Under the pieces are notes generated by a model. The model was not told the DNA's origin. It made no database searches and worked only from the letters and a program-made list of their open reading frames with translations. A program made the position numbers and the translations under genes. Of a DNA stretch of 25,825 nucleotides, positions 16,023 to 25,825 are shown one piece after another. The stretch spans positions 1-25,825 of IMG/VR virus record IMGVR_UViG_2537561935_000023; one strand, 5' to 3'. The number at the start of each line of letters is the position of its first letter. The first letter of the stretch is position 1. This stretch comes from a virus (taxonomy: Duplodnaviria > Heunggongvirae > Uroviricota > Caudoviricetes).

Positions 16023-18185
16023 ATGAAATCCATGGACAAAATTTCAACGGGCATTGCCTATGGCACCTCCGCAGGCAGTGCTGGCTACTGGTTTTTACAG
16101 CTGCTCGATAAAGTCACGCCCTCACAGTGGGCAGCAATAGGTGTGCTGGGTATCCGCACCGGCGGGCGCGTGCTGGCGGTAAACAGCCAGACCCGGACGC
16201 TGACGCTCGACCGTGAAATCACGCTGCCATCTTCCGGCACCACGCTGATAAGCCTGGTTGACGGGCAGGGGAGTCCGGTCAGCGTGGAGGTTCAGTCCGT
16301 CACCGACGGCGTGAAGGTGAAAGTGAGCCGTGTTCCTGACGGCGTTGCTGAATACAGCGTATGGGGGCTGAAGCTGCCGACGCTGCGCCAGCGCCTGTTC
16401 CGCTGCGTGAGTATCCGTGAGAACGACGACGGCACGTATGCCATCACCGCCGTGCAGCATGTACCGGAAAAAGAGGCCATCGTGGATAACGGGGCGCACT
16501 TTGACGGCGACCAGAGCGGCACGGTAAATGGTGTCACGCCGCCAGCGGTGCAGCACCTGACCGCAGAAGTCACCGCAGACAGCGGGGAATACCAGGTGCT
16601 GGCCCGCTGGGACACGCCGAAGGTGGTGAAGGGCGTGAGCTTCCTGCTTCGCCTGACCGTGGCAGCGGATGACGGCCGTGAGCGGCTGGTCAGCACGGCC
16701 CGGACGACGGAAACCACTTACCGCTTCACACAACTGGCTCTGGGGAACTACAGGCTGACAGTCCGGGCAGTAAATGCGCGGGGGCAGCAGGGCGATCCGG
16801 CGTCGGTATCGTTCCGGATTGCCGCACCGGCAGCGCCGTCGCGGATTGAGCTGACGCCGGGCTATTTTCAGATAACCGCCACGCCGCATCTTGCGGTTTA
16901 TGACCCGACGGTACAGTTTGAGTTCTGGTTCTCGGAAAAACGGATTGCGGATATCAGGCAGGTTGAAACCAGCGCGCGTTATCTTGGTACGGCACTGTAC
17001 TGGATAGCCGCCAGTATCAATATCAAACCGGGCCATGATTATTATTTTTACGTTCGCAGTGTGAACACCGTTGGCAAATCGGCATTCGTGGAGGCTGTCG
17101 GTCAGCCGAGTGATGATGCATCAGGCTATCTGGATTTTTTCAAAGGCGAGATAGGGAAAACCCATCTGGCTCAGGAGCTGTGGACGCAGATTGATAACGG
17201 TCAGCTTGCGCCTGACCTGACTGAAATCAGGACGTCCATAACGGATGTCAGCAATGAAATAACACAGACCGTCAATAAGAAACTGGAAGACCAGAGTGCA
17301 GCGATCCAGCAGATACAGAAGGTTCAGGTTGATACAAATAATAACCTGAACAGCATGTGGGCAGTGAAGCTGCAGCAGATGCAGGACGGACGCCTTTATA
17401 TTGCGGGTATCGGTGCCGGTATTGAGAACACCCCTGACGGCATGCAGAGTCAGGTGCTGCTGGCAGCAGACAGGATTGCGATGATTAATCCTGCGAATGG
17501 CAACACAAAGCCGATGTTTGTTGGTCAGGGCGATCAGATATTCATGAATGAAGTGTTCCTGAAACGCCTGACGGCCCCCACCATTACCAGCGGCGGTAAT
17601 CCTCCGGCATTTTCCCTGACATCAGACGGGAGACTGACGGCGAAAAATGCGGATATCAGTGGCAGTGTGAATGCGAACTCAGGAACGCTCAACAATGTCA
17701 CGATTAACCAGAACTGTACGATTAAGGGCATGCTGGAGGCGACCCAGGTCAGAGGAGATTTCGTTAAAGCTGTATCAAAAGCCTTCCCGAAAAAAGTCGG
17801 TACGTGGGGTAACACGGAAACACCAAACGGTACGGTTACAGTAACCATCAGCGATGATCATAACTTTGACCGCCAGATTATTATTCCGCCCATTATTTTT
17901 AACGGTATAGCGTATGACGATCCGGGGAGCGGAAATAACCCAGGAGGCACGCGATACACGGGTTATGGTTTTGAAGTTCGCAAAAACGGCGTATTAATCG
18001 CATCCAGAGAAACTAAAGGGGCCATTCCCGGTAGTTACAGTGCAGTTATTGATATGCCGAGTGGCAGGGGAAGCGTCACTCTGGAGTTTAAGATTTTCCA
18101 GAAAGGCAATCAGGGGGCAGGCAATATCACCGACTGTACGGTGATTGTGACCAAAAAAGCGGCTTCCGGCATCAGTATTCGTTGA
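16023..18185 (+). CDS. Chimeric ORF: N-terminal about 43 aa of a phage 21-type pinholin fused in frame to the C-terminal about 677 aa of a lambda J-type host-specificity protein (deletion remnant)
   Basis: N-terminus [43 protein letters not shown] matches the S21 pinholin N-terminus as recalled; from about nt 16152 the protein is collinear with the lambda J C-terminal half (e.g. ...[40 protein letters not shown]...); GGAGGTGAGG SD. Confidence 0.8.
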
Positions 18186-18651: not shown

Positions 18652-20357
18652 TGTATGAGCAAAAAGCTGGCCTTGCTAATACTGACCTAAACACCCTTAC
18701 CGGTGAATATTCTGGTTTCTATCAACAACCAACGAGCGCTTACGCAACAGAAGAGTTAAATTACCCAATCGGTCTGGCGGGCGCTTTAATAGTGCTCCAA
18801 ACGAGAGCCAACACTGCTTCTTCCTGCGTTCAGGTGTACCACCCTTATAATAATCCGGGAATTACTTATAGACGAATATATGAAGGAGGTAGCGGTACCT
18901 GGTCTGAATGGAAGAGAGATGTATCAACAGAAAGGGTTGAAGAGGGAAAAGAAACAACTTACGTATATTCTACGTATTCTTCAGGCGCACCACGCTTACA
19001 GGTTTCCAAATCTGGTTTGTGGGGTTGTCATAATGGCACTGGCTGGTTGCCATTAGCTGTTGGGCAAGGAGGTACAGGTGCGACAACAGTAGAAGATGCG
19101 CGAAACAACTTAAGTCTTGGCGAAAGTAGCGCAGTTAAATTTAAAAACCTTACTTTAACCGAAGCGCTCGACACGACATTAGGACTGCTTACAAAAACAG
19201 GACGAGACTGGAACGCTCAGCATACTGATAACGTCGACAAATTTAGACCAATTGCAGGCAGTACAAACGGCCCGGCAGGCTCTATGGTTCTTGGCGGCAT
19301 TCATGTTCAATTTAGTAAAAATTATGCTGTGCAGTTCGGAGGCCGCAATTCCGGTTTTTGGGGAAGAACAATTGAAAATGGAACGACGCAGGAATGGAAG
19401 AAATTACTAACAGTAGACGATCTCAATTCATCTACCGATCTTGCTGTCAGGTCATTAACCACATCTAACCCGATAAAATCTGGCGGAGGGCGGATTGATG
19501 TCCTTGGAAGCACGTCAGACTATAGCAAAATGGATTGCTTTGTACGTGGGTTTGATAGCACCGGTAATTCTCTCGCGTGGGCGTTGGGTTCATCAGTCGG
19601 CGTAAGTAAGATGCTGTCGCTAAAAAATTTCTTTAGCGGAGCTGAGATACTGCTAAATGGTAATGACGGCGCGGTTCAACTCAAAACAGGTGCTGTTAAC
19701 GGTGCTAAAGCGCAGGCGCTCACTATCAACAAGGATGAGGTTAACTCAACTGTTGATTTAACTCTTACAAAACAAACAGGGACTGGCAATCGTTTTGTTT
19801 TACAGAACTTAGGTAATACAGAACTACCATTTGCTGTCAAGGTGTGGGGTTCAGGTGATCGACAAAACGTTTTTGAGGTTGGAACGTCTGCCGCGTATCT
19901 GTTTTATGCTCAAAAAACATCGTCAGGTCAGCTGTTTGATGTAAACGGTGCTATTAACTGTACAACACTGAATCAGTTATCAGACCGCGAGCTGAAAGAC
20001 AATATTCAGATTATCAGTGACGCAACCGAAGCTATCCGTAAAATGAACGGGTACACCTACACACTTAAGGAAAACGGACTGCCTTACGCTGGTGTTATTG
20101 CACAGGAAGCAATGGAGGCAATACCGGAAGCGGTAGGCTCATTCACTCATTACGGTAAAGAGTTGCAGGGACCAACGGTTGACGGCAATGAATTACGTGA
20201 AGAAACACGTTATCTGAATGTTGACTACGCCGCCGTGACGGGCTTACTTGTTCAGGTCGCCCGTGAAACAGATGATCGCGTTACCGCGCTGGAAGAAGAA
20301 AACGCAGAATTAAAACAAAGATTATCTGCAATTGAGGCGGCGCTTGCCTCTAAATAA
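18604..20357 (+). pseudogene. 5'-truncated side tail fibre gene with C-terminal intramolecular-chaperone (S74-type) domain
   Basis: Tail-fibre motifs GGTGATTVEDARNNL and TIEQARANL; C-terminal ...SDRELKDNIQ...MNGYTYTLKENG...VIAQEA...LEEENAELKQRLSAIEAALASK typical of auto-cleaving chaperone domains; no native start, and the only ATG (18582) lies in lom-derived sequence. Confidence 0.7.
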
Positions 20358-20361
20358 TATT

Positions 20362-20386
20362 AAGGGGCTGTGCGCCCCGTTTTATT
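20362..20386 (+). terminator. Rho-independent terminator after the tail fibre remnant
   Basis: GGGGC-tgtgc-GCCCC followed by GTTTTATT. Confidence 0.55.
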
Positions 20387-20393
20387 GGGTAGG

Positions 20394-20687
20394 ATGAAAA
20401 TGGGTATAACACCTTTCCTTCATGCACTTTGTGCTGTGGCTGCGCAGATACTGGTGGGGCTTTTTACCGGAAACTGGGTTTACGGAGCGATAGCCAGTTG
20501 TACGTTCTTCATTGCGGGCGAACACACCCAAGCATAATATCGCTGGATTGAAATGTTCGGGCATGGCAAGCGGATTAACATGCCGTGGTGGGGCGGTTTT
20601 GATCCACGCGCATGGGATGTGGCAAGCCTGATGGATTTTGCTGTGCCGATGGTAGCGTGTCTTCTGATCTGGCTGTTGATCCGTTGA
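20394..20687 (+). pseudogene. Small hydrophobic protein gene interrupted by an in-frame TAA (about 45 + 50 codons)
   Basis: MKMGITPFLHALCAVAAQILVGLFTGNWVYGAIASCTFFIAGEHTQA-stop-YRWIEMFGHGKRINMPWWGGFDPRAWDVASLMDFAVPMVACLLIWLLIR; both halves share one frame and hydrophobic character. Confidence 0.45.
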
Positions 20688-20696
20688 ACATAAAAA

Positions 20697-20730
20697 GCCG
20701 CAGCAACTTGCCATGGCAGGATACTGCGGC
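20697..20730. terminator. Hairpin between the convergent pseudogene (+) and RT gene (-); likely terminator for the RT operon
   Basis: GCCGCAG ... CTGCGGC 7-bp stem enclosing the palindrome TGCCATGGCA; on the minus strand it is followed by TTTTTA. Confidence 0.45.
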
Positions 20731-20794
20731 TGGTTTGTGAGTTTAAATAGTGTGTTTATTGCGATATATTTTAATGACTTAATGGATTACATAT

Positions 20795-22165
20795 CTATGA
20801 TATTCCTGAAATATCCTCTTCAAGCTCTTTTACTGATTTCGCAATTTTAAATTTAAACTTCCTCTCTATTTCACTATTGCTAAGTTTTTTTTCCTTCTCT
20901 TTACCTATCCACATAGAAACAAGTTCTCGTTTCTGAGATATATGTAGATTGTCAAAGTTAGGTATGTATTTAAAAGTCTCCGCTCTACCTCTGCGGAGTT
21001 CATAGAAAGTTTTAATCAAAGATTTTGGTTTTATTTCTGATGAAAGGCCGAATCGGCGGATAAGATTATTGATAGTATGATTAACAGAGCGAAGTTGAGC
21101 TGTTGAGGTTATTTGTGAGAAGTACGATACCCATCCCAATCGTTTACCTTCAAACACACATCCCGTAATTCTGAGATTTAGTTTCCACTGACAATATGCA
21201 ACAGCTCGTTCTTTATCACGCTTACTTTTAGCTTGTAGTAGAGCGTGCCTATATGCAGTAAAAATTTTTGCTAAGGATGACTCAAATCTAAGAATGCTCT
21301 CATGTTTTATCAATAATTCTCGATTTTCTATGTGGTATCCCAAAAAGTTAAAACTTTCATCCAAACTGCCTACTTTGGATTTTGAGTTCTCTTCATTTAA
21401 TGGATGTGGGTTTAAATTTAATGATTGAAGCTTATCAATGATATGAGAAGCTATTTTTGTTGCTTGATATTTTGGTGTTAAAATAAGAATGTCATCAACG
21501 TATCGCATGTACCATATGTCATGCATTTTATTGATTTCATCATCGAAATTAGATAGTGATATTTCAGCTAAAATGTTTGATATCGCTAATCCCTGAGGTA
21601 CTCCTCTGGTATTATTAGGGATACCTTTGCTTCCTGTGGTTCCACTTACAGTAGGCACGATTAATGATGATGTTATTAACTGTCTAATTTCTTTTTTTCT
21701 AATTTTATTTTTTATTGCATTAATTATCAATTTATGTTCAATTGAAGGATAGAAACTTTTAAGATCTATTTTTGCATATTCAGCATATAGACTGTTGTTT
21801 AATGCTTCTTTCAATGAGTCAATTACTGTATGTGGTAGTTTTAATCTGGACTTAGGATATATTTCCGTAAGGCATTCACAGAGAGCTCTAAGAGTAATTC
21901 TGTCCCTAGCAGTTGGTATGGAAATCTGTCTGGGTGTAGAGTTAGCGCCTTTAGATATTAATTTTTCTTTATATGCTGTAAATTTGTAATTGCCAGAATT
22001 AACCTTTTCAAAAATGAAAGTGATCTCATTTTTTATTGTCAAATCAAGTTTTGATGGGCGAATCCGATCTATGCCAATCGCTCCTGATTCTTTGATTTTT
22101 TCAGAGTATACTTTTAGAAGATTTTTTTTCGAGAATGACTTTTTAAAAATTCTGCTTGCAGTCAT
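20795..22165 (-). CDS. Reverse transcriptase (456 aa), defence-type/retron-like, with about 200-aa C-terminal extension
   Basis: RT motifs read directly: R.ISIPTARDRITLRAL (motifs 1-2), KIDLKSFYPSIEH (motif A), GVPQGLAISNILAEI (motif B'), YMRYVDDILIL (YxDD motif C), LNLNPHPLNEENSKSKVG...FLGYHI (motif D/E); AT-rich; first ATG at 22163-22165 (ORF-track start 22171 is TTG); 23-nt overlap with the upstream gene. Confidence 0.85.
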   Translation of the reverse strand: MTASRIFKKSFSKKNLLKVYSEKIKESGAIGIDRIRPSKLDLTIKNEITFIFEKVNSGNYKFTAYKEKLISKGANSTPRQISIPTARDRITLRALCECLTEIYPKSRLKLPHTVIDSLKEALNNSLYAEYAKIDLKSFYPSIEHKLIINAIKNKIRKKEIRQLITSSLIVPTVSGTTGSKGIPNNTRGVPQGLAISNILAEISLSNFDDEINKMHDIWYMRYVDDILILTPKYQATKIASHIIDKLQSLNLNPHPLNEENSKSKVGSLDESFNFLGYHIENRELLIKHESILRFESSLAKIFTAYRHALLQAKSKRDKERAVAYCQWKLNLRITGCVFEGKRLGWVSYFSQITSTAQLRSVNHTINNLIRRFGLSSEIKPKSLIKTFYELRRGRAETFKYIPNFDNLHISQKRELVSMWIGKEKEKKLSNSEIERKFKFKIAKSVKELEEDISGIS

Positions 22166-22694
22166 AGTCAATCCAAAGATATATTAATGGGAGTATATAA
22201 AGTGCGGCAGTAATAAATATTCGAAGTAATATCCATAAAATAACAATTATTTTTTCTTTTTGTGTGGGGATCCTCGTCTTAAGTCCAACTTGAGTTACCC
22301 TTGAAATTTTATCATCTATGTCACGGTGATTCTCAACCTCATTGAGCAAATTAAAATATTTTTCTTTCTGTTCAAGAGATAACTGTTGACTGGTGGTAAT
22401 GTCAAAATAGAGTCGCTGTAGTGCAATATAATTCCTTCTCATGGCTATTGCTCGACCACGAAAATCTAGGTTAGATACGATCAGAGAAATACCCAGTAGA
22501 GCCACTGAAAGTATCGCCGCAACGACATCTGTATTATCTCCTAGAACCTTTGGAAATCGCAACGTTACAATTGAAAGTACCGCACTCAATATAGCATACC
22601 AAACGAGGATAAATTGAGAGTGTTTTTCAAGCCATTCTAGTCGATGGTGCGCTTGGATACGTGCTTTATATGTAAACCAAATATTGTCATGCAT
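22143..22694 (-). CDS. Small membrane protein (183 aa), SLATT-like, with an N-terminal two-helix hairpin and a C-terminal TM segment; putative effector partner of the RT
   Basis: Hydrophobic helices FILVWYAILSAVLSIVTL, VVAAILSVALLGISLIVSNL and IIVILWILLRIFITAALYILPLIYLWI; AGGA SD 7 nt upstream of ATG; 3' end overlaps RT start; SLATT assignment is inference from topology and context. Confidence 0.7.
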   Translation of the reverse strand: MHDNIWFTYKARIQAHHRLEWLEKHSQFILVWYAILSAVLSIVTLRFPKVLGDNTDVVAAILSVALLGISLIVSNLDFRGRAIAMRRNYIALQRLYFDITTSQQLSLEQKEKYFNLLNEVENHRDIDDKISRVTQVGLKTRIPTQKEKIIVILWILLRIFITAALYILPLIYLWIDYDCKQNF

Positions 22695-22699
22695 AAAAG

Positions 22700-22900
22700 A
22701 TCCTTTTTAAAAGCGGAAGGGGCAGGATATATTGGAACCGTTGAACATCCTGCCCGGCAGGATCAGTGAGCATAAGCTCAACAGTAAAATATTACTGTTC
22801 ATTATCAGAGCCGCCCTTGCATGCGCAAGAGGAAAAACCTGCCCCATCCCTTTGAATTATTACAATTTAATGATCTTAAAGTCAATACAAGTGAATGGTG
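22700..22900 (-). ncRNA. Candidate structured non-coding RNA/leader upstream of the SLATT-RT operon
   Basis: No ORF; dense nested inverted repeats: GGGCAGGAT (22720-22728) / ATCCTGCCC (22747-22755) / GGCAGGAT (22757-22764), GGGGCAGG (22719-22726) vs CCTGCCCC (22838-22845), ACAGTA-aaatat-TACTGT (22781-22798), CTTGC-atgc-GCAAG (22816-22829). Confidence 0.3.
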
Positions 22901-22916
22901 TCCAGAGATGATGAAC

Positions 22917-23165
22917 TTAATGAACAAACCACTCGTCAGCAGACTCCCAGGTATCTTTCAGAGTCTCCTGAACAAAAGTTTTAGCTGAATCTTTATCAGC
23001 GGTGCGCGTAACAGAAAGGCCATCGTTGCTGGTGGCTTTTACGATCACTTCTACATCGTCATAACGTTTACTGATGCGTCGGGTTAATTCTTCCTTTAAC
23101 GCATCCACAGCACCGGTTGGCATTTTAGTCATTTTTTCTTTGGCTATGCAGATTTCAATACGCAT
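22917..23165 (-). CDS. dinI: DinI-family SOS protein (82 aa)
   Basis: MRIEICIAK...AVDAL..EL.RRI...LSV......D......[15 protein letters not shown] collinear with E. coli DinI as recalled; GGGGA SD. Confidence 0.85.
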
Positions 23166-23177
23166 AAAAGTCCCCTA

Positions 23178-23225
23178 CACTGTATTTGTATACAGTATTA
23201 TTTTTAACTGTATGGATAAACAGTG
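23178..23225 (-). promoter_or_regulatory. Two tandem LexA (SOS) boxes in the dinI-like promoter
   Basis: Box 1 at 23178-23197 caCTGTatttgtatACAGta (17 of 20 to consensus TACTGTATATATATACAGTA); box 2 at 23206-23225 aaCTGTatggataaACAGtg (CTGT-N8-ACAG). Confidence 0.75.
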
Positions 23226-24323
23226 TCAAGAGGTCTTATTTCTGCTCCTTTGGAGTTCTTCAAAACGATTATGTAAAGATTTCGGATACAGTTCGGTATA
23301 TACCTGCCATAGCACGTTTAATGAACGATGCCCTGTAACCTGAGCGACTTCCTCAATACTAAAACCAGCCTCAAATAAGCGACTTGCCCCTTCTCTACGC
23401 AAATCATGGTATCTCAGATCTTTAATACCTAATTTGCTTCTTACCCTCTGAAATCCTGCGGTAACAGAAGTGCTGTTATATGGAAAAATGAATTCTGATT
23501 TTTTGGGTTGTCGCTGGACGATATCCCAGGCTTCCCCAAGCAAGGCAACTTTCATATGGTTGCCTTCCTTTTTACGTGGATCTTTCCTGTCTCTTACTAG
23601 TATAGATTTTTGTTCCTGGTCGAGATCTTCCCATCGTAACCGGCATACTTCTCCGATTCGCATACAGGACCACACAGAAAATTTGAGGATATCAACGAAC
23701 GGAATTTTTGAGCATTTATGAGTAGATCGTTGTTGAAGGCCTTCAATGAGCATGTTCAGTTCATCAGATGCTGGTCTACGATTACGACGGTTTGATTTAC
23801 CAATCAAACCGAGTTTAAGTAGATATGGACGAGCGCTTTTCGCCGGGTTTGATGTGTAATTGATTCCGTATACAGGTTTTGCCGCATCCAGAACACTGCC
23901 AAGATAACTAACATCGTGGCTGACTGTTGCTGGGCCTGCACCAGCGTTGTTTCTTAGCCTGCAATGTTCAATTACGTCATTTTCTGTCAGTTCAGATAGT
24001 TTGATCGCGGAGATGTCACTATCCATAAGCAGTTCCAGCACATATCTTTTAGTACGGCCTGCTTTACCTCCGGCATTTGGGTCATTTAAATATTTGTGTA
24101 GTAAGTCACGGACTGTAAGTCCGTCAACAGCATTTGATGATGGAATGCCATATAGATCTAATTCCATCACTTTCTGTGCGCCCCATGTTTTGGCATGAGC
24201 ATGTTTAGGGAATGTTTTGCTTTCCCTGTAAGTGATAACACCTTTTTCTTTGATAATCACATTACAGCGATAGCGTGGTGTGCCATCGGATTTTAGTCGT
24301 TTCTCTATGTTATAGTACGCCAT
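23226..24323 (-). CDS. int: Tyrosine integrase (365 aa) adjacent to and divergent from dusA: dusA-associated integrase type
   Basis: C-terminal tyrosine-recombinase motifs (...RYHDLRREGASRL...VTGHRSL..L.VY); GAGG SD; 5' end about 90 bp from the dusA reading frame. Confidence 0.85.
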   Translation of the reverse strand: MAYYNIEKRLKSDGTPRYRCNVIIKEKGVITYRESKTFPKHAHAKTWGAQKVMELDLYGIPSSNAVDGLTVRDLLHKYLNDPNAGGKAGRTKRYVLELLMDSDISAIKLSELTENDVIEHCRLRNNAGAGPATVSHDVSYLGSVLDAAKPVYGINYTSNPAKSARPYLLKLGLIGKSNRRNRRPASDELNMLIEGLQQRSTHKCSKIPFVDILKFSVWSCMRIGEVCRLRWEDLDQEQKSILVRDRKDPRKKEGNHMKVALLGEAWDIVQRQPKKSEFIFPYNSTSVTAGFQRVRSKLGIKDLRYHDLRREGASRLFEAGFSIEEVAQVTGHRSLNVLWQVYTELYPKSLHNRFEELQRSRNKTS

Positions 24324-24456
24324 TACACGACCTCGTTATTTCGGGTTCCCATAAAGCGTGGGAACCTGTGCGGGAACCTAACGCGAGAAAAATAGCCTGA
24401 AATGTTCAAAAATGCACGATAATCCTGAAACACAGAAAACTAATCAAACCAGCGTG

Positions 24457-25449
24457 ATGCCTGAAAAAACTGGCGCTTACTGGAGTTCTCGGTTTAGCAT
24501 TGCTCCTATGCTCGACTGGACGGACAGACATTGCCGCTATTTCTTGCGTCTGCTTTCCCGCAATACGTTGCTGTATACCGAAATGGTGACCACAGGGGCG
24601 ATTATTCACGGTAAAGGTGATTACCTGGCGTACAGTGAAGAAGAACATCCGGTAGCGTTGCAACTCGGCGGTAGCGATCCGGCGGCGCTGGCACAGTGTG
24701 CGAAGCTGGCAGAAGCGCGTGGATATGATGAGATCAACCTGAATGTCGGCTGCCCGTCTGACCGGGTGCAGAACGGCATGTTTGGTGCGTGTCTGATGGG
24801 TAATGCGCAGCTGGTTGCCGACTGCGTGAAAGCGATGCGCGATGTGGTGTCGATTCCAGTGACGGTGAAAACGCGTATTGGCATCGATGACCAGGACAGC
24901 TATGAATTTCTCTGCGATTTCATCAACACCGTTTCCGGCAAAGGCGAGTGTGAGATGTTTATCATCCACGCACGTAAAGCCTGGCTTTCGGGGTTAAGCC
25001 CGAAAGAAAACCGTGAAATCCCGCCGCTCGATTATCCGCGTGTGTATCAACTGAAGCGTGACTTTCCGCATCTGACAATGTCGATTAACGGTGGTATCAA
25101 GTCGCTGGAAGAGGCCAAAGCACACCTGCAACATATGGATGGCGTGATGGTCGGGCGCGAGGCGTATCAGAATCCGGGTATTCTGGCGGCGGTAGACCGG
25201 GAGATCTTTGGTTCCTCGGATACCGATGCCGATCCAGTGGCGGTAGTGCGCGCCATGTATCCGTACATTGAGCGTGAACTCAGCCAGGGGACGTATCTCG
25301 GCCATATTCCCCGGCATATGTTGGGCTTGTTCCAGGGTATTCCTGGCGCGCGGCAGTGGCGGCGTTATTTAAGTGAAAATGCCCATAAAGCGGGTGCAGA
25401 CATTAATGTGCTGGAACACGCGCTCAAACTGGTGGCGGATAAGCGTTAA
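24457..25449 (+). CDS. dusA: tRNA-dihydrouridine synthase A (DusA), 330 aa from ATG 24457; the open frame extends upstream to 24412 into element-derived sequence
   Basis: Near-identical over most of its length to E. coli DusA as recalled (…[17 protein letters not shown]…NLNVGCP…HARKAWL…); the N-terminal about 25 residues differ from K-12 as recalled. Confidence 0.9.
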
Positions 25450-25531
25450 CTTTTCACCAAAAAGTAGTCAAATTCACCACGCCCTGCGCACCGTCGCGGG
25501 GCATTTTGCTGTTAAATCAATAGATTATTTT

Positions 25532-25546
25532 TGGCATGATTCTTGT
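25532..25546 (+). promoter_or_regulatory. Candidate sigma-54 promoter of pspG (TGGCATG-N4-TTGT)
   Basis: GG/-24 and TTGT/-12-like elements with correct spacing about 37 nt upstream of the pspG ATG; pspG is a PspF/sigma-54 regulon member by established knowledge. Confidence 0.4.
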
Positions 25547-25582
25547 AATGCCAGCAAGAGATTTCATATTTGGGAGAGCATC

Positions 25583-25825
25583 ATGCTGGAACTACTTTTT
25601 GTGTTTGGCTTTTTTGTCATGCTGATGGTCACCGGCGTTTCGTTGCTGGGCATTATCGCCGCGCTGGTTGTGGCGACGGCCATTATGTTCCTCGGCGGTA
25701 TGCTGGCATTGATGATTAAGTTGCTGCCGTGGTTACTACTGGCGATTGCGGTGGTGTGGGTTATTAAGGCGATTAAAGCACCAAAAGTGCCGAAATATCA
25801 GCGTTATGACCGCTGGCGTTACTAA
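25583..25825 (+). CDS. pspG: Phage shock protein G (PspG), 80 aa
   Basis: MLELLFVFGFFVMLMVTGVSLLGIIAALVVATAIMFLGGMLALMIKLLPWLLLAIAVVWVIKAIKAPKVPKYQRYDRWRY matches E. coli PspG as recalled; canonical position downstream of dusA. Confidence 0.9.
   Translation: MLELLFVFGFFVMLMVTGVSLLGIIAALVVATAIMFLGGMLALMIKLLPWLLLAIAVVWVIKAIKAPKVPKYQRYDRWRY

Follow-up and report, generated by a model that had tools for sequence, protein, structure and literature searches.

In the 25,825-nt stretch of DNA that we analysed (the window), a 222-nt intergenic region (22695-22916) separates a dinI-like gene from a gene pair for a SLATT protein and a reverse transcriptase (RT), which raises the question of what this region encodes. 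The original prediction, made from the letters of the DNA, was an RT-associated, DRT-type ncRNA that templates cDNA synthesis. This central guess was right. The RT proved to be a UG17 enzyme nearly identical to that of Eco3DRT10. The segment running from 22849 to 22713 on the minus strand is, with high confidence, the ncRNA of a DRT10 (UG17) defence system and a natural allele of Eco3DRT10. The structured leader is thus the already described DRT10 ncRNA of the Eco3 type, and the element is not new.

The combination of a UG17 RT with SLATT has been described as DRT10 by Tang et al. in October 2025 (PMC12632851) and by Sanchez-Nieto et al. in April 2026 (10.64898/2026.04.29.721553). In both studies DRT10 is a tripartite module with a structured ncRNA of 137-143 nt just upstream of SLATT, defence needs all three of ncRNA, SLATT and RT, and the RT makes long tandem-repeat ssDNA from a short ncRNA template (PMC12632851; 10.64898/2026.04.29.721553).

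The SLATT-RT operon

All features of the operon, its promoter and the ncRNA described below are on the minus strand unless stated otherwise. The dinI-like gene (23165-22917) is followed by the intergenic region, the SLATT_5 effector gene (22694-22143) and the RT gene (22165-20795), whose start overlaps the end of the SLATT gene (22165 vs 22143). The SLATT protein matched Pfam SLATT_5 (PF18160, 1.3e-28) and PADLOC RTasSLATT (1.5e-56), and it was identical to Eco3 SLATT at 178 of 183 residues (97%). Its Shine-Dalgarno sequence, AAGGA, is at 22702-22706. The SLATT ATG is located only 18 nt past the 3' end of the ncRNA; therefore, SLATT-RT is probably transcribed by read-through, either from the ncRNA promoter or from dinI.

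The RT comprises 456 aa counted from its ATG and carries a YVDD motif. It matched PADLOC RT_UG17 at 1.2e-158 with 526 bits, every other model scoring 127 bits or less; UG17, Drt3a, UG4 and Drt2 were the best models among the best 25 of 74 matches. The supplement of PMC12632851 names the Eco3 RT as NCBI OKX54664, and over the compared part of OKX54664 the window RT was identical at 394 of 399 residues (99%). Eco3 uses the C-terminal Ser456 of its RT as the primer of synthesis (PMC12632851). The window RT likewise ends in ...EEDISGIS, with the last serine being residue 456 (codon at 20798-20800), and this serine was invariant in 26 homologues, so that the DRT10 priming residue is in place. The arrangement is also that of DRT10, with the ncRNA directly upstream of a SLATT-RT pair on the same strand, a UG17 enzyme as the partner RT and SLATT_5 as the partner effector.

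Boundaries and promoter of the ncRNA

We placed the 137-nt RNA at 22713-22849 by mapping the published Eco3 numbering onto the window (RNA position p = coordinate 22850 - p, with C107 at 22743 and position 137 at 22713), and the covariance model described below matched this segment with 177.7 bits. The published residues U15, U62, U64, U110, C116, A117, U119 and C107-U119 all fit with position 1 at 22849, with U15 and U62 lying within poly-U tracts and U64 at the end of such a tract. We infer the identity with the Eco3 ncRNA from the RT accession, the template motif and this residue numbering. What had been proposed as one leader of 220 bp consisted of two parts, a promoter in 22850-22916 and the RNA in 22713-22849.

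A consensus scan of the promoter part found a -35 hexamer, TTGACT (22880-22885), and an extended -10 element, TGTAATAAT (22856-22864), with a score of 10/12 and an 18-nt spacer. The -35 hexamer was invariant in nine E. coli alleles, and the extended -10 element ends 7 nt upstream of RNA position 1. The position of the extended -10 element was conserved in Pseudomonas, Stenotrophomonas and Photorhabdus homologues, and an TGTAGAAT / TGTAAGAT element was found equally far from the start of the covariance-model match in nearly all homologous loci. The promoter is of the sigma-70 type, and the distance kept in almost all loci supports the first base of SL1 as the start of transcription.

The original prediction that the region contains no ORF was borne out, as no conserved ORF was found and the homologues were 123-137 nt long, not differing in steps of three. 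A small ORF on this strand (46 aa, 22707-22847) was rejected because the length differences between homologues are not multiples of three. A search of Rfam 15 at E <= 10 over 20000-25825 gave only noise and no curated DRT10 ncRNA family, and nothing is annotated over the ncRNA (22713-22849) in RefSeq E. coli genomes (NZ_CP029122.1, NC_017646.1 and others).

Repeats and fold of the RNA

The motif GGCAGGAT occurs exactly at 22721-22728 (plus strand), 22747-22754 (minus strand) and 22756-22763 (plus strand), that is, in three copies within 43 nt, and the whole 25.8-kb window holds six copies against 0.72 expected from shuffles. A fourth copy is partial, having only the 6-nt core CCTGCC (22838-22843), which extends to CCTGCCCC at 22838-22845. 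The four copies in alternating orientation that had been reported were thus recovered, as three exact GGCAGGAT/ATCCTGCC copies and one core-only copy, all inside 22719-22845. SL1 and SL5 each contribute two of them, one per strand, and these two stems happen to share sequence in the E. coli/Xenorhabdus lineage.

A repeat search also recovered every inverted pair of the original prediction, including 22720-22728/22747-22755, 22747-22754/22756-22763 and 22780-22787/22792-22799, with two corrections of position. The long-range pair reported at 22719-22726/22838-22845 exists, although its true extent is 12 nt at 92% (22715-22726/22838-22849), and the hairpin arm given as 22757-22764 does pair as stated but lies one nucleotide away, at 22756-22763. 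The short hairpin reported at 22816-22829 is SL2 (22814-22831), and a fifth hairpin, SL4 (22768-22779), had been overlooked.

Folding of the whole 222-nt intergenic region as minus-strand RNA gave -66.6 kcal/mol, compared with -50.6 +/- 4.2 kcal/mol for shuffled sequences (z -3.8). The 137-nt core RNA gave -57.2 kcal/mol, compared with -38.9 +/- 4.0 kcal/mol (z -4.6), and none of 200 shuffles was equally good. The minimum free energy (MFE) structure of the 137-mer is the published architecture, with probabilities of about 0.98 for both SL1 and SL5. The basal stem SL1 pairs positions 1-3 and 5-12 with 124-131 and 133-135; its 5' strand is GGAUGGGGCAGG (positions 1-12, 22838-22849) and its 3' strand is CCUGCCCCUUCC (positions 124-135, 22715-22726). 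SL1 carries SL2 (positions 19-36, pairing 19-25 with 30-36), SL3 (positions 51-70, 22780-22799, pairing 51-58 with 63-70), SL4 (positions 71-82, pairing 71-74 with 79-82) and SL5 (positions 87-103, 22747-22763, pairing 87-93 with 97-103). SL5, with the sequence AUCCUGC-CGG-GCAGGAU, is the template-boundary hairpin and lies immediately 5' of the template loop (positions 104-123, 22727-22746), GUUCAACGGUUCCAAUAUAU, whose 20 nt are unpaired according to the fold and the comparison of loops.

Two overlapping complementary stretches of 9-10 nt were observed between 22796-22806 and 22907-22926, matching the 3' end of dinI and the bases just after it to the conserved ncRNA junction GAUAAUGAACA. The dinI-side stretch is upstream of the predicted ncRNA start, and pairing would thus need read-through from dinI. 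This complementarity is probably a chance occurrence in AT-rich sequence.

Covariation across homologous loci

We gathered 44 loci with RT relatives from one-genome-per-species contigs and searched them with a covariance model derived from the E. coli alleles and the five-helix structure. One strong match (52-138 bits) was found in each of 27 of the 44 loci, with RT identities of 50-84%, and the match always lay 20-35 nt upstream of the SLATT start, which in many homologous loci is a GTG or TTG codon. These 27 loci came from Xenorhabdus, Photorhabdus, Buttiauxella, Pseudomonas, Stutzerimonas, Stenotrophomonas, Bordetella and three metagenome-assembled genomes. Among them, 96.5% of the cells in the five helices were paired, compared with 49-56% when the partners were slid by 1-3 columns, and compensatory changes were found in 24 of 37 pairs. 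SL1 had compensatory changes in 9 of its 11 pairs and SL3 in 7 of 8.

An alignment made with a covariance model is fitted to that model, and hence we also applied MAFFT and RNAalifold to the raw sequences, which gave the same five helices with compensatory changes in 16 of 33 pairs. The DRT10 structure was thus recovered by the MFE, by covariation and by RNAalifold on an unfitted alignment. Covariance across homologous loci had been named in the original prediction as a way to check it, and there the five helices covaried in 27 loci. The long-range pairing potential is kept in the homologues, with both the long-range stem (SL1) and the hairpin at 22747-22763 (SL5) covarying strongly.

Template, alleles and predicted repeat

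In Eco3DRT10, the cDNA repeat GAATCATTG is templated by CAAUGAUUC at positions 107-115, and the first four template bases (A) recur as A' at positions 116-119, where the nascent cDNA is re-aligned (PMC12632851). By homology, the window template A-B is CAAC-GGUUC (positions 107-115, 22735-22743), and the alignment segment A' is CAAU (positions 116-119, 22731-22734), the latter also backed by the comparison of loops. The whole pattern, CAAC-GGUUC-CAAU, starts 3 nt after SL5. The A-B-A' repeat, anchored on a conserved GUU-CAA, was present in 19 of 21 distinct homologous loops, in agreement with the published rule: GUU-(U)CAA at the start of the loop recurs as (U/C)CAA 9-11 nt downstream, and the B segment between them is variable. 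The original prediction took the roughly 110 nt bracketed by the inverted repeat as the templated part. This did not hold, the template being a 9-nt stretch in an unpaired loop; reads of Eco3 did not map over the ncRNA, and the 9-nt loop segment alone was copied (PMC12632851).

The window and Eco3 templates differ by 2 nt (CAAC-GGUUC-CAAU vs CAAU-GAUUC-CAAU). In an alignment of nine E. coli copies, those of CE10, O15_8X and CFIA carry GUUCAAUGAUUCCAAU, which is exactly the published template plus alignment segment, whereas the window carries GUUCAACGGUUCCAAU. Only U110C and A112G distinguish the window RNA from that of CFIA (135 of 137 positions identical), and from this identity to an allele with the Eco3 template the window locus would also be expected to make RNA-templated cDNA. 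The predicted cDNA of the window allele is a protein-primed (GAACCGTTG)n.

The 137-nt RNA was found in 188 of 5426 complete E. coli genomes at 95-100% identity. The window template allele was present in 154 of these carriers and the tested Eco3 allele in 34, and no third template allele was found among the 188. Among the nine aligned E. coli copies, 6 of 137 RNA positions varied (12, 25, 27, 96, 110 and 112), two of them in the 9-nt template and two in hairpin loops. C27U is in the loop of SL2 and G96A in that of SL5, while C25U turns a G-C pair of SL2 into G-U and G12U breaks the innermost pair of SL1.

In the window allele, A and A' differ at the fourth base (CAAC vs CAAU). Realignment is predicted to proceed with the terminal TTG pairing with CAA and a G:U wobble at the fourth base, and mutation of the fourth base of A in Eco3 (U110A) was tolerated, with a changed repeat (PMC12632851). 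Furthermore, A112G creates an overlapping GUUC...GUUC repeat of period 8 (22735-22746) without a counterpart in the tested Eco3 allele; the same feature is present in the loops of Xenorhabdus, Photorhabdus and Bordetella homologues (loci L009, L033 and L034). It could be a cryptic realignment site: were the RT to read 3 nt further, 8-nt (CGTTGAAC) or mixed repeats might result, whereas a stop at C107, as in Eco3, would leave this second repeat without effect.

Alternative explanations

The original prediction likened the leader to a retron msr/msd, in which the inverted repeat would be a1/a2 and branched msDNA would be made from the approximately 110 nt enclosed. There is a likeness, in that the internal hairpins of a structured ncRNA are enclosed by a terminal inverted repeat beside a defence RT operon, and many database records call such RTs 'retron-type'. 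However, the RT belongs to another clade, with 526 bits on RT_UG17 and no retron RT model among the best 25 of 74 PADLOC matches, and no Rfam retron family was found at E <= 10 over 20000-25825; neither a retron-clade RT nor an msr/msd recognisable by curated models was thus found. In addition, DRT10 priming is from a serine and not from a branching G, and with the nearly identical, protein-primed Eco3 enzyme the enclosed stem-loops are not copied (PMC12632851). The RT clade, the lack of an Rfam match and the protein priming together exclude a retron, to which we give almost no credence. The same low standing applies to a reading at the DNA level, with the four 8-mer copies as operator sites bound by a prophage regulator of the defence operon. 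The 8-mer is indeed clustered and over-represented, and the region is within a prophage. In homologues, however, substitutions in the arms preserve the pairing (GC to AU and CG to UA, in SL1, SL3 and SL4), which argues for an RNA helix and not a DNA site, and RIP-seq for Eco3 shows RT-bound RNA here (PMC12632851).

The shared sequence of SL1 and SL5 also allows a second fold, in which the 5' strand of SL1 can pair with the 5' strand of SL5 and the 3' strand of SL5 with the 3' strand of SL1 in the E. coli/Xenorhabdus lineage. The original prediction noted mutually exclusive hairpins, and a cis-regulatory attenuator or switch could be imagined in which exchange between SL1+SL5 and this 1:2+3:4 pairing gates termination before SLATT-RT or access to the template. 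The alternative fold is merely 3.3 kcal/mol less stable (-53.9 vs -57.2 kcal/mol) and becomes the MFE when folding covers all 222 nt of the intergenic region; a U-rich stretch, UUCCGCUUUU, follows the last stem, and the short distance to the SLATT ATG means that SLATT-RT needs read-through. However, the alternative fold has a probability of only about 0.02 at equilibrium, and as terminators the two folds would be alike, each ending in a stem at the same nucleotide. In the homologues, the alternative pairing was at the level of column shuffles, as seen for 22720-22728/22747-22755: 72.2% of cells were paired compared with 70.8% after shuffling, and 4 compensatory pairs were found compared with 4.1 expected. 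In Pseudomonas, Stenotrophomonas and Bordetella, SL5 reads AUCCC/GGGAU and has lost its match to SL1. Two exclusive pairings that are both conserved were thus not found, as SL1+SL5 covaries and the alternative does not. The 1:2+3:4 fold was rejected, being the MFE only with promoter sequence included and pairing at shuffle level in homologues. A conserved switch is unsupported because of this shuffle-level pairing and because SL5 is unlike SL1 outside E. coli/Xenorhabdus, and we consider it very unlikely. Also very unlikely are two variations on the DRT10 ncRNA, a kinetic switch specific to the E. coli/Xenorhabdus lineage, with the second fold forming first during transcription, and a period-8 register in the common window allele giving 8-nt or mixed repeats. 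If true, the kinetic switch could delay loading of the RT or tune read-through into SLATT-RT.

Prophage context

The DRT10 cassette is located in a defective lambdoid prophage adjoining dusA. A 720-aa ORF (16023-18185, plus strand) joins the N-terminus of a P21-type holin S (aa 5-43) to tail-tip J domains (aa 165-719). This fusion has the appearance of a scar left by a deletion of the genes from lysis to tail, and it is on the apparent loss of these genes that we call the prophage defective. The window has two integrases, one of the lambda type (1-1119) and another by dusA (23226-24323). A 449-aa protein (7716-9065, minus strand) matched PADLOC PD-T7-1 at 7e-157 with full-length coverage and had no Pfam match; its gene is a second anti-phage defence gene of the same prophage remnant.

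The cassette starts directly after the dinI stop codon (22917), and GTTCAT is present on both sides of the dinI/cassette junction. The 3' end of dinI alone matches about 1500 E. coli genomes, and the ncRNA region is in 188 only. The dinI-ncRNA-SLATT-RT block occurs at varied sites, namely at dusA here, at prfC in O15_8X and at yecD/aspS in HS1496 (loci L001, L002 and L053), and dinI is frameshifted in the HS1496 copy.

Proposed mechanism

The position of the RNA, its promoter, its covarying fold, the template pattern, the identity of the RT and its priming serine are supported by the results above. For Eco3, RNA binding, templating and the role in defence were established by RIP-seq, miniprep-seq, in vitro reconstitution and plaque assays, and SL5 was required for any repeat synthesis (PMC12632851). 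By analogy, RT binding, protein-primed processive synthesis of repeats and the three-part requirement for defence would apply to the window locus as well. Most likely, the RNA is transcribed from its own extended -10 promoter and adopts a fold in which SL1 carries SL2-SL5. The RT would bind it, prime DNA synthesis from its own C-terminal serine and copy the 9-nt template CAACGGUUC just 3' of SL5, halting at the boundary that SL5 defines. The 3' end of the cDNA (..TTG) would then re-anneal on the downstream CAA(U) and the cycle would repeat in a telomerase-like manner, yielding a long single-stranded (GAACCGTTG)n with a covalent link to the RT.

The repeat cDNA is proposed in the literature to govern the membrane effector SLATT and thereby abortive infection, and its level may be set by host ExoI (SbcB) and phage SSB-like proteins. 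The two preprints disagree on its change upon infection. Tang et al. reported that cDNA falls and proposed that it neutralises SLATT (PMC12632851), whereas Sanchez-Nieto et al. found that first-strand cDNA rises, with toxicity in the absence of SbcB/ExoI and a phage SSB-like trigger (10.64898/2026.04.29.721553). An RT-SLATT locus of H120 makes sbcB essential (Rousset 2021, as cited in PMC9226505).

Comparison with known systems

The closest relative is the Eco3DRT10 ncRNA (PMC12632851), which shares the location upstream of SLATT, the length of 137 nt, SL1-SL5, the template region at 107-119 and CAAU, together with an RT that is 99% identical and has the same C-terminal serine. It differs by U110C and A112G in the window, so that the predicted repeat is GAACCGTTG rather than GAATCATTG, and the A/A' match is 3 nt plus a wobble in the window and 4 nt in Eco3. 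The UG17-A DRT10 of Escherichia sp. E3659 (Sanchez-Nieto et al.) is likewise an ncRNA-SLATT-RT module that makes tandem-repeat ssDNA; its ncRNA is expressed from a promoter of its own, depends on the basal stem SL1 and has a short template with a copy of one trinucleotide on either side. However, its RNA is 143 nt long with six stem-loops, and its repeat is 7 nt (AGTAATA). In that study, covariance models worked within subtypes only (10.64898/2026.04.29.721553).

DRT9 (UG28) resembles DRT10 in its overall fold, as reported (fig. S1F, PMC12632851), and in having a protein-primed RT of the class 2 UG group. Its template is poly-U and gives poly-dA, whereas the window loop is without a U tract, and the window RT scored 69 bits on Drt9 vs 526 on UG17. 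Telomerase RNA works alike, with a short internal template that is recopied, a downstream alignment segment and a 5' boundary helix, but it is not homologous. DRT10 priming is from a protein serine and not from a chromosome end, the RT here has 456 aa and is without TEN and TRBD domains, and its product is a free, RT-linked ssDNA used in immunity.

Implications

The prediction of a templating ncRNA, drawn from the sequence alone, was correct in essence, and the locus adds an allele only to the known DRT10 systems. The covariance model built here finds the DRT10 ncRNA in 27 loci from about eight genera. DRT10 attracts real interest at present as a telomerase-like enzyme of bacteria whose RNA supplies the template, the alignment segment and the boundary helix. 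Not the tested Eco3 template but CAACGGUUC predominates among complete E. coli genomes (154 of 188 carriers), and the two natural alleles, with RNAs that are nearly identical save for the template, can serve directly to test whether the control of SLATT depends on the repeat sequence.
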